NCBI RefSeq assembly: GCF_988243305.1
Contig: NZ_OZ547136.1
DNA: 64,000 nucleotides
Direction: 5' to 3' (one strand)
Made by a program: the position numbers. Positions 30,401 to 36,400 of this stretch are shown here, in pieces; the first letter of the stretch is position 1, and the number at the start of each line of letters is the position of its first letter.

Positions 30401-33400
30401 TTAACCCAATAATCATTTAAATCGCAGCCAGAAAGTTATTCGCTTTTAACTGAATTATATTTATAACGGAGAACATTATGGTTTGGCTGGAAATTATCGT
30501 AGTACTTGGTGCAATATTTTTTGGTATTCGCCAGGGGGGAATCGGTATTGGTTTATGTGGCGGGCTTGGGCTTGCCATTCTGACTCTGGGATTTGGTCTG
30601 CCTATGGGGTCGCCGCCAGTCGACGTGATCCTGATTATTATGACCGTTGTTGTGGCGGCCTCAGCCTTACAGGCCGCAGGCGGAATGGATTATCTGGTAC
30701 GCGTCGCTGGTAATTTTATGCGGCGTAACCCGAAATATATCAACATAATCGCGCCGATTATCACCTGGTCTATGACCATTATGGCCGGTACTGGGTTTAT
30801 TGTTTTTTCCACGCTGCCGGTGATTGCTGAAGTGGCGAAAGAGTCCGGTATCCGTCCTTCCCGCACGCTTGCCGGTTCGGTTGTCGCTTCGCAGGTTGCG
30901 ATTTCCGGTTCGCCGATCAGCGCCGCAATGGCGGCTATGCTCACTATTATGGAGGTAAACGGTGTCAGTTTTATTCAAGTGATGTCGGTATGTCTTCCCA
31001 CCTCTTTTGCTGCCGCGATGGTCGCCGCTTTTATTGCTTCCCGACAGGGATGTGAGTTGCAGGATGACGAGGTCTACCTTGAGCGCCTGCAAAAAGGACT
31101 GGTGCAAAAATACGAGAATAATAGCAGCATCAAGCCAGGTGCGACGCTCTCCGTCGGATTGTTCCTGCTGGCGACGGTCGCTATTGTTATTCTTGCTGCC
31201 TTCCCCCAACTGCGTCCGGGTTTTGATATCGGTAAACCGATGGAAACACGCGATATCATTATTATCTGTATGCTCTCTGCCGCCTGCCTGATGGTGGTGC
31301 TGTGTAAGACGGCGACCGATGCCATTATTCTCACCTCCACATTCCGTGCGGGGATGAGTTCGCTGGCGGTAATTCTCGGCATTGTAACCTTAGGCACCAC
31401 TTTTATTGATGCGCATTTAACTGAGATTAAAGATATTGCTGGTGATATTTTGCAGGCGTATCCGATGTTGTTGGCGCTGGTTCTTTTTGGCACTTGCGCG
31501 CTGCTCTACTCGCAAGGTGCGACCACGCCGTTAATTATCCCGCTTGCCGTCGCGCTTGACGTGCCCACCTGGGCAATTCTGGCGTCCTATGTGGCCGTCA
31601 CCGGAGTATTTGTACTGCCAACGTATCCAACATCACTGGCTGCCATGGAATTTGATACTACCGGCACAACTCGTGTAGGCAAATATGTGCTGAATCATCC
31701 ATTTATGCTGCCTGGGTTGGGGGGAATTATTGCTGGAGTGGCATTAGGCTTTGTGATTGCGCCAATGATTATTTAGCACTATCAAACATCAGTATCGATG
31801 GTTTATACACAATAAAGACAGATATGGCGGAATATAGTCTGTTGTAAGCGCCAACAAAGAATAGGGGAATTCCGCCATGTCTGAACATCTTCACAATATG
31901 GTATTAAGTGTTGTCGTTTAATGATTTATTTCTTGGTTATGTTGTGTATTAGCTGCATCTATCGCTTTTTGATACCTGAGGTGTACTGGCAATAGCGGAC
32001 ACTACCATTTGTTCTTTTTTTAAGCAGTCATCTGATGATATTTTTCCCTGAAGGCTGCCGAGGAGATATTCCCCAGACGAGAGTGACGACGCTGACGATT
32101 GTAGAAAATCTCAATGTATTCCCGTATTACTGAGATGGCTTCATCCCGGTTATTAAAACGATAGTGGCTCAGGCTCTCATTTTTCAGCGTTCCCCAGAAG
32201 CTTTCCATCGGAGCGTTGTCGTAACAGTTACCTTTACGCGACATTGATGTTTTCAGACCAAACTGCTCCTGTATGACCCGGTAATCGTATGCGCAGTACT
32301 GTGAACCTCGATCAGAGTGATGGATTAGCCCGGCAGGTGGGCGCTGGCTCCTGAGCGCCATAAACAGGGCTTTACCTGTCAGCTCTTTTGTCATGTGCTC
32401 TCCCATGGCGTAGCCGACAATTTCGCACGTATAAACATCTTTGATGCCAGCGAGGTACAACCATCCCTCCTGTGTGGCAACATACGTCAGGTCCGCCACC
32501 CAGACCTGATTTGGTGCTGTAGGAGCGAACGTCTGGTTCAGCAGATTTGGCGCAACTGGCAGATTGTGGTTCGAGTTCGTAGTCGCTCTGAACTTGCGTT
32601 TCTGCTTACAGCGTAGCCTTAGCTCCTTACGAAGACGTGCCAGTCGGTCACGACCAACGATGATGCCATTCTCTGCCAGCTCCGTCTGGAGCCGCCGGGT
32701 TCCATATGTTTCGCGAGTGCGGATATGTGCCACCTTAATCTCCAGTTTTAGCCGCTCATCACTTTAGTTTTCTGTCTGAGGGTTCATGCTGTACCCAGTT
32801 GTAGGTGATGACTCCAACTTACTGATAGTGTTTTATGTTCAGATAATGCCCGATGACCTTGTCATGCAGCTCCACCGATTTTGAGAACGACAGTGACTTC
32901 CGTCCCAGCCTTGCCAGATGTTGTCTCAGATTCAGATTATGTCGCTCAATGCGCTGAGTGTAACGCTTGCTGATAACGTGCAGCTTTCCCTTCAGGCGTG
33001 ATTCATACAGCGGCCAGCCATCCGTCATCCATACCACGACCTCAAAGGCCGACAGCAGGCTCAGAAGACGCTCCAGTGTGGCCAGAGTGCGTTCACCGAA
33101 GACGTGCGCCACAACCGTCCTCCGTATCCTGTCATACGCGTAAAACAGCCAGCGCTGACGTGATTTAGCACCGACGTAGCCCCACTGTTCGTCCATTTCA
33201 GCGCAGACAATCACATCACTGCCCGGTTGTATGCGCGAGGTTACCGACTGCGGCCTGAGTTTTTTAAGTGACGTAAAACCGTGTTGAGGCCAACGCCCAT
33301 AATGCGTGCACTGGCGCGACATCCGACGCCATTCATGGCCATATCAATGATTTTCTGGTGCTTACCGGGCTGAGAGGCGGTGTAAGTGAACTGTAGTTGC

Positions 33401-36400
33401 CATGTTTTACGGCAAGGAGAGCAGAGATAGCGCTGATGTCCGGCAGTGCTTTTGCCGTTACGCACCACGCCTTCAGTAGCGGAGCAGGAAGGACATCTGA
33501 TGGAAATGGAAGCCACGCAAGCACCTTAAAATCACCATCATACACTAAATCAGTAAGTTGGCAGCATTACCAGAAAATGATAAGGTAAACATTGAAAAGC
33601 AGCCGACTGATGACTGTTTTTTATAGTTGCATTTTTATTTTTTGTTATTTTCATTTATATTCCCTTACTTGTCGTTTAAAATTCTTCTATATAACAGGAA
33701 GAGGTAACCATAGAATGAACGTTTATTTTCCTGTATCAGAACAGCCATAACTTTTATTTTATAGTTGTTATCAGTGAATGAATGCAACCTAATAGAACAA
33801 TGAGGAAAACAATGGAGAAAAAGCGACGGACCGGACGCCATAGTTCATATTCTCGTGTATCAGCCTCACGTATCAACCTTTCTGAAATGGTTTCGGTTTC
33901 TTTTCCTCGCACCAGAATATGTCTGTAATATTTCCTCATGACATATACCGAAAACTGAAACCAGATTAATATGGATGGACACACAACACATAAACTTCTG
34001 ATGATATCACCCGGGAAAGTATCTTGGGCGGGTAAAAGAAAGTCATATACTCTGGATAAAATCATCATCGAGATAAATGAGACGCCAGCACCTATCCAGT
34101 ATTCGATATGAGAAGATGCTGCATTATATGCGTCAGTAAAATTTTTCTTTCTTAATGAAGGTGGAAGTGCTGAAAGTTCAGGAATACGTTTTCTTGTCCA
34201 GTATATTTTCATATAGTAACTCATATAAAAAGTGTTCTACTTTACTATGATGATGACGATTTATAAAAGGCTTATAATGACTACTTCTCCTTTCATTCTC
34301 GAATTTCACGATAATGATAGAGATAATCATTATCAATTGATAGTATCAGTAATTTTGACTTACATCACACTTTCATGGTTTAATCAGGTGATTGATTTAA
34401 TGAAAAGAGTGTGTTTGTGGATGTATTGTGTATATGTCTTACCGGGCATCTGTTCTTACATTAATTAATATATTGCTATTTAAGTATTGGTAGTATTGTC
34501 AGTAACATTCTTTTGGTTAATTTAGTTATTATTCCTCACTGATTAATTGTCCTTCCGTTCTTATTGTTTGTAACTTGTGTTTGTATCGTACCTTTCAGGT
34601 GTTGATGCGCGCTTTACTGTGTCTGCACCGGCTTGACAAAATTCAACAGGGGTTGAAAAGGAACATTTCGTGCAAATAACCGAAGCCTTAATTTCAGAGC
34701 CGGGGGAAATCCGGCGTTTTGTTCAGCAGGCGGTGGACCACTGGCCAAATCTGTTGGCATTTCACTTCACGCTCTATTCGGCAGAAGGAATCTATGGTCA
34801 ACAGATTCAGACATTTTGTAGTTCCTTTCACCGACGGGTACACGAACGTATTACGGAGCATAATCACACGGTCAGCCCATCAGCGCCGGTGGTATTACGC
34901 TGGTTGCGGGAACAACATGAAGGAGCACAGATACGATGTCTGTTGCTGCTCAGCCAGACGAGTATTTGCCATCCGCGAGTCGGCGTCATGGCTGATGAAG
35001 AATGTGCGCAACTGGTGGATTTACTGCAACAGACCTGGTCGGTGATAAGTGCTGGCGGACAATGCCGGGTGGAAAGATGTTTTCGGGTTGCCCGGCTTGG
35101 TTCATCAGGGCAATACGTGGCGTTAAAAACGGCTGTTCAGTCCTTTATGTCGCAGGTTATTGCAACAATCATCCGGTGATTGTCGGGAGGAATATCAATG
35201 CTTCCGTTAATTTTTACTGGCTGATAAAGTTTTGTCTGCTGAATCTTTATACGGAATTCCTTTCAGTATGCGTACACGAATTGACTATCTGGCGGATAAA
35301 TACTGTTTTACAGAACGGAACGAATCCCCCCGTCTTCGCCGGCAGTGGCAGGATGTTCTGGAGGAGTGCCGGCAGACAGAGGCCGGGCCAGAAGAACGGT
35401 TGCGTATTGCACTGCTGAATGTGGATTACGTCACCAGTTTTGAACTGCCTTTTCGCTTGCTGCTTACCCGTACACCGCAATTGATTGCCGCGCTGCGTGA
35501 AGAATGGGGCATCAGCCAGAAAAATGTGGTGTTTAACGATAAACGGTTTGGCTGCGTGTACAGCCTGAAGGCCAGCCTTTCTGGTGTGCCGGATACATAC
35601 CGGTATCATCTGTCTCACCGTATTCGTCGCGTGGTTGGGAATGAAAACACATCATTGCCATATCAGCAGGTTGCCCGGGAAGTGAAAGCGCCCCGTGAAC
35701 GGCTGAAGTATGCACTGGAGGCGGGTTTGCTGGTGACTGCACTGGACGGCCTGTTCTGGTTTGGCAGTCAGCGTATTGCGGCTGATGTTCTGAGGCTGAG
35801 AAAGGCCGGAATGCCGGTGGTGACCACGACCGTGGAGGTGCACGATAACCTGACGGGAACAACCCGCAAAGTACCGGCATACCATCTCTGATACAACCAT
35901 CAGGGGGAATATTGCTCTGGCAGCAGCAGTATGACATTCTTTATACTTTATCCCCGTGCCTGAAAACATGTGCTAAGGAAACGGGAATGGCAAGGTCCGA
36001 TTATGATATTATCAATCTGTCTCTGGAACATGAACTGAATGAGTGGCTGGCAGAGAGAGGTTATGCCGGACTGGTGGATAACCGGAATCGCCTGGCAGAA
36101 GTTGTTACCCGCAAATTGCAGGACAGCTTTTATATAAACGTTTCCAGGGATGCGCTGAACACGGCATACAGTGAACACCCGGAGTGGTTTTCTGGGCTTG
36201 TCTCCGGGGATGAGAATTAATAAGTGGATTATGCTGCTATCAGGTAGTGTGATTGCCGGCAGGGATTTCGTTTTATTCTGTTTCTTCCCGGGGTTCGGGT
36301 TTGAATTTTCCCAGAAAGTTGTACATCGGTTGCATGCAGGGATGCGGATAGCCGTCCCGCATAAACACCACCCGGGTTTCCTCAACACTGGTCAGGGTGA

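Follow-up and report, generated by a model that had tools for sequence, protein, structure and literature searches.

How a complete IS1 came to lie between two truncated neighbours, with no target duplication around it, is the question raised by this island locus. In the window, i.e. the whole stretch of 64,000 nucleotides analysed here, the element separates a fragment of IS600 from the 5' remnant of a gene for a CPBP-family intramembrane endopeptidase, and each of these leads into an island arm of its own type (Table 1).

Table 1. Features of the IS1 locus and of the adjoining island arms (positions in the window).
Feature	Position	Strand	Remarks
LysR-type regulator, annotated HypT	28404-29348	-	First gene of the left-arm module; counterpart of SRL PAI orf7
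Asp/Glu-type racemase	29693-30412	+	NCBIfam racemase_CuyB, 247.5 bits (cut-off 190); counterpart of SRL PAI orf8
Anaerobic C4-dicarboxylate transporter, dcuA-like	30478-31776	+	NCBIfam PRK09412, 582 bits; counterpart of SRL PAI orf9
IS600 fragment	31977-32803	-	826 of 1264 bp kept, 3' part
Complete IS1, IS1F type	32804-33571	-	768 bp
IS1 terminal repeat, insB-side end (IRR)	32804-32826		23 bp
G at IS1 position 4	32807		Found in 12 of 12 IS600'::IS1 junction copies examined
insB' frame	32819-33322
insA	33241-33516		InsA of 91 aa
A6C frameshift motif	33259-33267		TTAAAAAAC
IS1 terminal repeat, insA-side end (IRL)	33549-33571		23 bp
CPBP-family intramembrane endopeptidase gene, 5' remnant	33572-33654	-	83 of 687 bp; PGAP pseudogene, C-terminus missing
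Right arm, O157-type island backbone	33572-45390		Hypothetical genes, POTRA, AAA, PAPS reductase (ibrA-like), ibrB-like, PerC

The ends of the IS1 align base for base with those of the K-12 IS1F and O157:H7 SS17 copies, and its boundaries are therefore unambiguous. The element has the ~768 bp and the imperfect ~23-bp ends of the IS1 family, its terminal 23-mers matching at 19 of 23 positions. It shares length, terminal repeats and gene layout with the reference IS1F of K-12 (insA7/insB7 adjoining fecI), from which it differs by 4 substitutions in 768 bp (99.5% identity), as compared to 73 differences from IS1B copies. With the SS17 copy it agrees at 767 of 768 positions, the sole difference being position 4 of the insB-side repeat. 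Here the window carries G, whereas the IS1F and IS1B reference copies, including K-12 IS1F, and the O157-type copy carry A; the G is absent from all non-junction IS1 copies examined. While insB of the K-12 IS1F is annotated as a pseudogene, the window copy can be read across the A6C motif as an open InsAB' fusion frame of 232 aa. Both ORFs match transpos_IS1 of NCBIfam in a profile search, and PGAP annotates an intact programmed-frameshift transposase in an identical IS1 copy. Judged from these reading frames, the coding capacity of the window IS1 is apparently intact.

A target duplication of 8-9 bp is a sign of simple transposition, not of family membership, and it is absent at the window IS1. 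At the exact boundaries, ccagttgta on the left (32795-32803) and agaaaatga on the right (33572-33580) have 2 of 9 bases in common, no more than expected by chance, which bears out the claim of the first-pass annotation that the two flanks differ. A repeat of 8-9 bp at slightly shifted boundaries had been named there as the observation that would overturn this claim. Within 15 bp to either side of either boundary, neither a direct repeat of 7-11 bp with at most one mismatch, at any offset, nor a 6-mer shared between the flanks was found, and the claim stands. In strain TOE17, which served as positive control, one IS1 is flanked by a perfect 9-bp duplication (CGCCCCTAT) and the IS1-bounded SRL region, bracketed by two halves of capU, by an 8-bp duplication (TAAATTCG). 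Searches of 5,426 complete E. coli genomes, the set surveyed here, with reconstructed queries for the two sides of a simple insertion returned no genome in either case (0/5,426 for the 3' part of the CPBP gene followed by a duplication and IS1; 0/5,426 for IS1 followed by a duplication and the 5' part of IS600). Because both neighbours are cut, the duplication is absent and a simple insertion occurs in none of the genomes, the sequences support a reading of the window IS1, with DNA lost on both sides, as a rearrangement joint and not as a simple insertion.

The left neighbour had been labelled IS911-like, which proved wrong. PGAP names it IS600, and over 826 bp it differs from the intact 1264-bp IS600 by 4 substitutions and a 1-bp insertion (99.4% identity). 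Comparison by blastn of K-12 IS911A, represented by its 5' 764 bp, with the full IS600 and with the window fragment gave chance matches of 11-20 bp only, and an identity as IS911 was rejected. Of the two terminal repeats, the fragment keeps the one on the orfB side (TGAGGTGTACTGG..., from 31977); the 438 of 1264 bp that it has lost comprise the opposite terminal repeat, orfA and the beginning of orfB. It does not have the full set of both terminal repeats, orfA and the orfA-orfB frameshift window that makes up a complete IS600. Its ORF (32020-32733) matches the NCBIfam profile transpos_IS3 with 289.9 bits (cut-off 160), covering only profile positions 146-369 of 369. Thus, the element is indeed a truncated member of the IS3 family as first described, but the part lost is 35% rather than the 5' half. 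The 1-bp insertion, an A at 32766, is present in all three copies of the window arrangement examined, including L018 and L024, and in none of the other aligned junction-bearing or intact-IS600 copies.

Beyond this fragment, the left arm has the gene for the C4-dicarboxylate transporter as its last intact gene. Gene set and order of the arm (Gp2-family, LysR, racemase, DcuA) are the same as in orf5-orf9 of the SRL PAI of Shigella (S. flexneri YSH6000), where the orf8 product has been assigned as aspartate racemase (PMC6980539). In the ORF list of that island, DcuA (orf9) is immediately followed by the resistance genes, after which the list continues with CapU and Shf; neither VirK nor MsbB2 is listed (PMC6980539, Table 2). 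Related E. coli islands at a tRNA-Ser gene carry, bounded by IS1, the SRL integron (oxa-1, aadA1, cat, tetB), capU/shf and fec. The window, by contrast, is without the resistance region, fec and the downstream capU/shf genes, and its IS1 leads into an O157-type backbone; no tRNA gene was found within the window. Left-arm haplotypes are reticulate, the window showing 4-6 differences from genomes whose IS600 is complete or has an internal deletion and 11-20 from other carriers of the junction, and a reading of the left-arm SNPs as a tree was rejected for this reason. Equating the window throughout with strain 190693 was likewise rejected, as the two are colinear only over 27443-45390.

On the right, the 3' 604 bp of the CPBP gene are missing, a truncation that the first-pass annotation had not mentioned; in other islands, the intact 687-bp gene adjoins microcin genes. 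As compared to O157:H7 SS17, the right arm shows 16 mismatches in 7,424 bp (99.7-99.8% identity), against 91.6-98.6% identity to islands in which the CPBP gene is intact. The junction of IS1 with the truncated CPBP gene (IS1::CPBP') is identical to that of the O157:H7 tellurite-resistance/iha island, whose IS1F is the same except at position 4. We take the O157:H7 island with this IS1F joint to be O island 43/48, of the SpLE1 type. Naming of the tellurite-resistance/iha island is in line with PMC3064760. In O157, the other end of the IS1 abuts the 3' 261 bp of the alpha/beta hydrolase gene of the microcin cluster, which follows a glycosyltransferase gene and iha, whereas in the window this insB-side end abuts the truncated IS600 and the dcu module instead.

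Each of the two junctions was also found with other partners. IS1::CPBP' is present in 499 of the 5,426 genomes, O157:H7 and others, in the form hydrolase'::IS1F::CPBP', which marks a deletion of 10,683 bp of the microcin cluster. The IS600'::IS1 junction was detected in 211 of the 5,426 genomes and has at least four different right-hand partners, among them a fragment of ibrB in inverted order (33 genomes, O104:H4 being one of them, which retain the intact CPBP gene and the microcin cluster), an amino-acid antiporter (86 genomes) and, in one metagenome contig, an IncFII replicon. Both junctions together, as in the window, occur in 68 genomes, with the 2.8-kb arrangement 99.6-100% identical. 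The exact junction was not found among the PLSDB plasmids, and a plasmid origin of it was rejected; 11 apparent matches, all gapped or two-piece matches in plasmids of S. dysenteriae, were discarded. A repeat-induced misjoin across IS1 would be conceivable for a multicopy element, as IS misjoins occur in draft assemblies, but its probability is practically negligible: the same 2.8-kb arrangement recurs in 68 complete genomes that come from numerous hosts and laboratories, and a metagenome contig, L024, has the same left junction together with the arrangement-specific insertion.

The survey also bears on an origin from two insertions, one IS1 entering IS600 and another the CPBP gene, each with a 9-bp duplication, after which recombination would have removed the interval and left one IS1. 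Mismatched flanks and two cut neighbours are exactly what this predicts, and IS1-IS1 exchange is clearly active in the lineage. However, neither simple insertion nor either of the missing half-junctions is present in the 5,426 complete genomes. The IS1 that 499 genomes carry at the CPBP site adjoins, on its other side, a truncated hydrolase gene (the 10.7-kb deletion) and not the remainder of the CPBP gene, and for the IS600 side an IS1B at a distance of 3 kb is documented as a source. We regard this origin as improbable.

This IS1B comes into view in genomes in which IS600 is still intact beside dcu, of which there are four. In the two examined, IS600 is followed in the same orientation by lpxM, virK and capU3'::IS1B, bordering the Shigella SRL region, and the IS1B lies 3.0 kb from the later breakpoint in IS600. 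A nested deletion from this IS1 end is seen in strain N427, in which a joint lpxM'::IS1B carries the same aadA1-side flank. An adjacent-deletion pattern is seen for each junction in other genomes (nested capU', lpxM' and IS600' on one side, the 10.7-kb microcin deletion on the other), a pattern that transposase-driven and recombinational deletion have in common at the sequence level. Reif and Saedler reportedly described, in 1975, IS1-promoted adjacent gal/chl deletions anchored at one IS1 end. In such classical deletions one end is fixed, the other is joined to ever more distant DNA, no duplication arises and the IS1 stays intact, which the nested capU', lpxM' and IS600' series from the SRL-side IS1B resembles. 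Unlike in the classical case, one adjacent deletion alone cannot give the flank pairing of the window, because other genomes combine each of the junctions with different partners.

The IS1 bodies at these junctions are mosaics of IS1B and IS1F with many different breakpoints. An IS1B tract beside the junction reaches approximately position 516 in copy L019, IS1F sequence lies beside it in the window copy and in the IncFII-linked copy L022, and the two junction copies of strain 266917_2 have common private SNPs in their middle parts. These patterns indicate that IS1-IS1 exchange is active at the junction loci. The window IS1 is already of the IS1F type at position 19, which places an exchange or conversion boundary within positions 5-18, i.e. 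14 bp. It has the composition of a hybrid IS at an IS1 x IS1 joint: G4 and the left flank belong to the IS600' lineage, positions 19-768 and the right arm to the O157-type lineage, the left-hand parental marker being a single base (G4). Internal IS1 SNPs were rejected as a means to decide the direction of events, since mosaicism is heavy among the copies and a boundary within positions 5-18 is required in either direction.

The reverse direction would require only a single adjacent deletion by an IS1F. An O157-type hydrolase'::IS1F::CPBP' joint would have lain downstream of dcu-IS600 in cis, its insB-side end would have attacked IS600 with deletion of the interval, and the other carriers of IS600'::IS1 would descend from this product via later IS1 exchanges. 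That the window IS1 and the O157 copy differ at position 4 only is in line with such an event, as are the O157-type IS1::CPBP' joint and right arm and the junction-adjacent IS1F sequence of some copies; moreover, the window itself would need no extra recombination near the IS1 terminus. Nevertheless, this route appears rather unlikely. No precursor in cis was seen, the two intact-IS600 genomes examined having SRL and no O157-type joint downstream, and the 33 genomes with inverted ibrB, whose CPBP gene and microcin cluster are intact, would have to have regained both. For the junction-side IS1B tract in these lineages, up to ~516 in L019, a further conversion would have to be assumed, again with its edge within positions 5-18, and the presence of an IS1B in the right orientation 3 kb from the breakpoint, along with the nested deletion series, would be coincidence. 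Highly doubtful, in turn, is the idea that IS600'::IS1 acts as a transposase-driven launching pad, its insB-side end (G4) anchored to the dcu-racemase module and its free insA-side end attacking the CPBP gene, ibrB, the antiporter locus and an IncFII plasmid. If true, a ~5-kb D-aspartate utilisation module would have been moved or copied between islands and replicons, a process at which the pair of junction copies of strain 266917_2 might hint.

Taken together, we consider it probable, albeit with reservations, that the window IS1 is the seam of two island segments of different origin, where homologous recombination between IS1 copies fused two IS1 deletion joints of older date. In the first step, for which there is strong comparative support, an IS1-bounded SRL would have transposed into capU of an SRL-type island with the order dcu - IS600 - lpxM - virK - capU. 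From its insB-side end, the left IS1 (IS1B type) would then have deleted the adjacent ~3.0 kb into IS600, and the resulting IS600'::IS1 joint would soon have gained the G at position 4. This step predicts an SRL left boundary that reads ...ccagttgta directly followed by GGTGATGACTCC..., with an IS1B-type body and the aadA1-side flank. Independently, and by a mechanism that we infer from a structure seen in the genomes, IS1F would have replaced 10.7 kb between the alpha/beta-hydrolase and CPBP genes of a microcin H47/M island, giving hydrolase'::IS1F::CPBP', the arrangement of O157:H7 and many other strains. In the third step, homologous recombination of two equally oriented IS1 copies would have linked a left arm of the SRL type with a right arm of the O157 type, and the DNA between or beyond the two copies would have been lost. 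The outcome would be a hybrid IS1 with the junction-specific G4, followed by pure O157-type IS1F sequence from position 19. Of the two processes that the first-pass annotation had offered as alternatives, IS1-mediated adjacent deletion and recombination of one IS1 copy with another, probably both contributed, in succession. Its proposal thus finds support, since each joint exists separately elsewhere and their pairing looks like the product of IS1-IS1 exchange, but more than one event is needed.

Several observations count against fusion of two deletion joints. The predicted primary product, IS600'::IS1B::aadA1, was found in 0 of 5,426 E. coli genomes, and for Shigella it would be deduced from an ORF list only; four matches that seemed full-length consisted of two pieces each, belonged to another, nested deletion, that in lpxM, and were rejected. 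None of the genomes was seen to carry both parental joints in cis. A boundary within 14 bp at the edge of homology would be unusual for a RecA-type exchange. Likewise, the reticulate left-arm haplotypes and the IS1F-bearing junction copies speak against this order of events, and the IS1 type originally present at the IS600' junction is not certain because gene conversion has scrambled the IS1 bodies.

The IS1 seam is an ordinary scar of IS-driven deletion and recombination, a phenomenon already well known, and involves no new mechanism. Its value lies mainly in annotation and comparative genomics, as it gives the exact seam of a hybrid island that is SRL-type on the left and O157-type on the right; therefore, IS600 and the CPBP gene appear as pseudogenes, and neither microcin cluster nor SRL resistance region is present. 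Simple lineage markers are provided by both junction sequences, by G4 of the IS1 and by the extra base at 32766. The window IS1 apparently still encodes InsA and the transposase InsAB', and it may thus stay active as a site of further rearrangement. More generally, the locus exemplifies the shuffling of island modules between E. coli pathotypes by IS1 copies.

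Both ends of the IS1 in the window were set by alignment over its full length, and its InsAB' fusion frame is open (232 aa). Since this copy differs at 4 positions from K-12 IS1F and at 1 from the copy of O157:H7 strain SS17, but at 73 from IS1B copies, it is classified as IS1F. The first-pass annotation had noted that the 9 bp on either side differ, and indeed ccagttgta (left) and agaaaatga (right) agree at only 2/9 positions. A repeat of 8–9 bp at shifted IS1 boundaries, which the annotation had named as refuting its reading, was missing: within ±15 bp around either end there was neither a direct repeat of 7–11 bp (≤1 mismatch) nor a shared 6-mer. 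As positive controls, strain TOE17 showed a perfect 9-bp duplication around an IS1 (CGCCCCTAT) and 8 bp (TAAATTCG) either side of its IS1-bounded resistance region. The K-12 reference IS1F adjoining fecI (locus L012, 2473–3240) has unrelated 9-bp flanks, GGGGATTTC and GACCATGTT, and thus likewise represents no simple insertion.

Features at the IS1 joint of the window
Feature	Position	Strand	Remark
IS600 fragment, orfB-side 826 bp of 1264-bp element	31977–32803	-	Left neighbour of IS1
IS1, complete, 768 bp	32804–33571	-	Window sequence
insB' frame	32819–33322	-	ORF within IS1
insA	33241–33516	-	ORF within IS1
A6C slippery motif	33259–33267	-	In IS1
CPBP-family endopeptidase gene, first 83 bp of 687 bp	33572–33654	-	Right neighbour of IS1

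A broken gene lies on both sides of the IS1, and the lost parts of each point into it. On the left, the truncation of an IS3-family element, as annotated at first pass, is real. However, its IS911-like label was rejected, as comparison with the 5' 764 bp of K-12 IS911A showed no likeness at the DNA level; the element is IS600, and it lacks 438 of 1264 bp (35%) rather than half, a stretch comprising the second terminal repeat, orfA and the first part of orfB. The fragment starts with the terminal repeat TGAGGTGTACTGG and carries a 1-bp insertion at 32766. On the right, the CPBP gene is found intact beside the microcin H47/M genes in CFT073 and further strains. Intact IS600 copies at four comparison loci (L008, L013, L014, L015) lack a matching 3-bp duplication and vary in flank pairing (dcu/IS600/lpxM, BCCT/IS600/lpxM, BCCT/IS600/ISEc52), indicating that islands of this kind have recombination seams at IS600 as well. 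In strain 961, whose left arm is closest to that of the window (4 differences in 4.8 kb, with a common IS4 insertion), the dcu-side IS600 is internally deleted at a GAAG microhomology (L007 9300–9370, equivalent to window 32634) with the far terminal repeat kept; beyond it come genes for an M48 peptidase, type I restriction and DarTG, and no IS1 is present.

The junction of IS1 with the truncated CPBP gene, carrying the same IS1F, is present in 499 genomes, among them O157:H7, O111, O103 and O145. The opposite IS1 end adjoins the final 261 bp of an alpha/beta-hydrolase gene there, with a glycosyltransferase gene and iha ahead of it. Comparison with related genomes, the check suggested at first pass, revealed a missing segment: mapping of both flanks onto an island with the intact cluster gave a loss of 10,683 bp in O157-type islands, comprising most of the hydrolase gene, mchS3, mchI, mchB and the export genes, up to the 3' part of the CPBP gene. 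The right arm of the window shows 16 mismatches in 7,424 bp to O157 SS17, as compared to 91.6–98.6% identity when matched to islands that retain the whole CPBP gene; this places the arm in the O157-type lineage. Judged by these sequences, the right junction has a history separate from that of the left.

The left junction, IS600'::IS1, has a history of its own as well. It occurs in 211 genomes, of which only 68 have the right side seen in the window. Position 4 of IS1 is G in 12/12 junction copies examined and A in all remaining copies examined, IS1F and IS1B among them; the junction is therefore common by descent. Its right partner is an amino-acid antiporter/decarboxylase locus in 86 genomes, an IncFII replicon in one metagenome contig, and others in at least 24 genomes. 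In 33 genomes, among them those of the O104:H4 outbreak lineage, the IS1 is joined in inverted order to an ibrB 5' fragment, and the intact CPBP gene and microcin cluster are retained. The ibrB joint point (L005/L009, strain SW071611; also O104:H4 2011C-3493) is equivalent to window 42917, and the entire CPBP-microcin-iha segment runs in the opposite order to that of the window. The 30 kb examined on the far side contained no second IS1.

An origin of the left junction in an SRL-type island, i.e. one related to the Shigella resistance region, is probable from sequence comparison. Four genomes carry an intact IS600 beside dcu at the same site. The two of these that were examined continue beyond the IS600 with lpxM, virK and the capU 3' part, then an IS1B oriented as the window IS1, and then aadA1, oxa-1, intI1 and cat. 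The distance from the IS1B end to the later IS600 breakpoint is ~3.0 kb. In TOE17, the second capU half, then shf and fec, lie beyond a second IS1; the capU halves flank the region and bear an 8-bp duplication, showing that the IS1-bounded SRL region transposed into capU. Strain N427 shares this IS1B and its aadA1 flank, but a truncated lpxM adjoins on the other side, which makes it an intermediate member of a nested deletion series. In the published ORF table of the Shigella SRL island, a LysR regulator, a racemase and DcuA (orf7–9) precede the resistance genes, after which come CapU and Shf, while VirK and MsbB2 are absent (PMC6980539); this is the remainder to be expected if a deletion had run from the left IS1 of SRL into IS600. 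Annotations of the racemase conflict: the window gene (29693–30412) matches the NCBIfam model 'cysteate racemase CuyB' with 247.5 bits, above the curated cut-off of 190, whereas its SRL orthologue is assigned to D-aspartate metabolism (PMC6980539).

Typing of junction IS1 copies at the 72 positions that separate IS1B from O157-type IS1F revealed mosaics of many patterns. Copies with an ibrB or antiporter partner are IS1B from position 19 to 139, 196 or ~516 and IS1F thereafter, while the IncFII-linked copy has the opposite order. The window IS1 combines the junction-lineage G at position 4 with an otherwise pure O157-type sequence. Strain 266917_2 holds both an antiporter-type copy and a window-arrangement copy, which have private SNPs in common mid-element and differ beside the junction. 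These belong to two IS200-LysR-racemase-dcu-IS600'::IS1 modules with different right partners (L017, 4.806 Mb; L018, 5.117 Mb), whose left arms are 1 base apart in 4.8 kb and whose IS1 bodies are partly homogenised.

Elsewhere in the window, a 1310-bp IS3-family element is present in three identical copies (6165–7474 and 26133–27442, plus strand; 52633–53942, minus strand) and as fragments (45132–46171 and 57365–57623). A stretch of this element is identical to a fragment that bears the annotation IS629 in L013, and the copy at 26133 sits inside an IS4. Strain 190693, which has the same IS1 arrangement, lacks the copies at 6165 and 26133 as well as a 12-kb segment (45391–57364) that includes the copy at 52633; the window thus derives from another strain than 190693. 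This segment resembles an aerobactin-type operon, as its ORFs match siderophore synthetase (IucA/IucC-like), acetyltransferase, N-monooxygenase and TonB-dependent receptor families; the N-monooxygenase gene is apparently split by the IS copy.

The complete 2.8-kb arrangement recurs at 99.6–100% identity in 68/5,426 complete E. coli genomes, which excludes an assembly artefact. Reconstructed simple-insertion junctions, that is CPBP 3' part, duplication and IS1 end, or IS1 end, duplication and IS600 5' part, had 0/5,426 matches each. The main rival explanation, a single adjacent deletion by an O157-type IS1F into IS600, would account for the arrangement directly, but it requires a cis precursor, of which none was observed, and would have other lineages re-acquire sequence several times. 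Three steps make up the simplest account, which draws on both adjacent deletion and IS1-IS1 recombination, the two routes proposed at first pass, in keeping with truncated neighbours, missing duplication and hybrid parentage. An IS1-promoted adjacent deletion in an SRL-type island would have generated IS600'::IS1, and a separate IS1F-associated 10.7-kb deletion in a microcin island hydrolase'::IS1F::CPBP'. The two IS1s, which are oriented alike, would then have undergone homologous exchange, whereby an SRL-type left arm was joined to an O157-type right arm. The first two steps are seen as structures, their mechanism being taken from classical IS1 behaviour, and the third is suggested by the hybrid parentage. 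Weak points of the three-step account are that the exchange boundary must be confined to IS1 positions 5–18, that the ancestral IS1 type is blurred by gene conversion and that left-arm haplotypes are reticulate; the predicted primary product of the first deletion was not found among the 5,426 complete E. coli genomes.

Taken together, the initial observation is correct and well described, and the phenomenon a familiar one, in a highly mosaic genomic island. What our analysis adds is a detailed natural history of this joint and some lineage markers; neither the element nor the mechanism is of a new kind.
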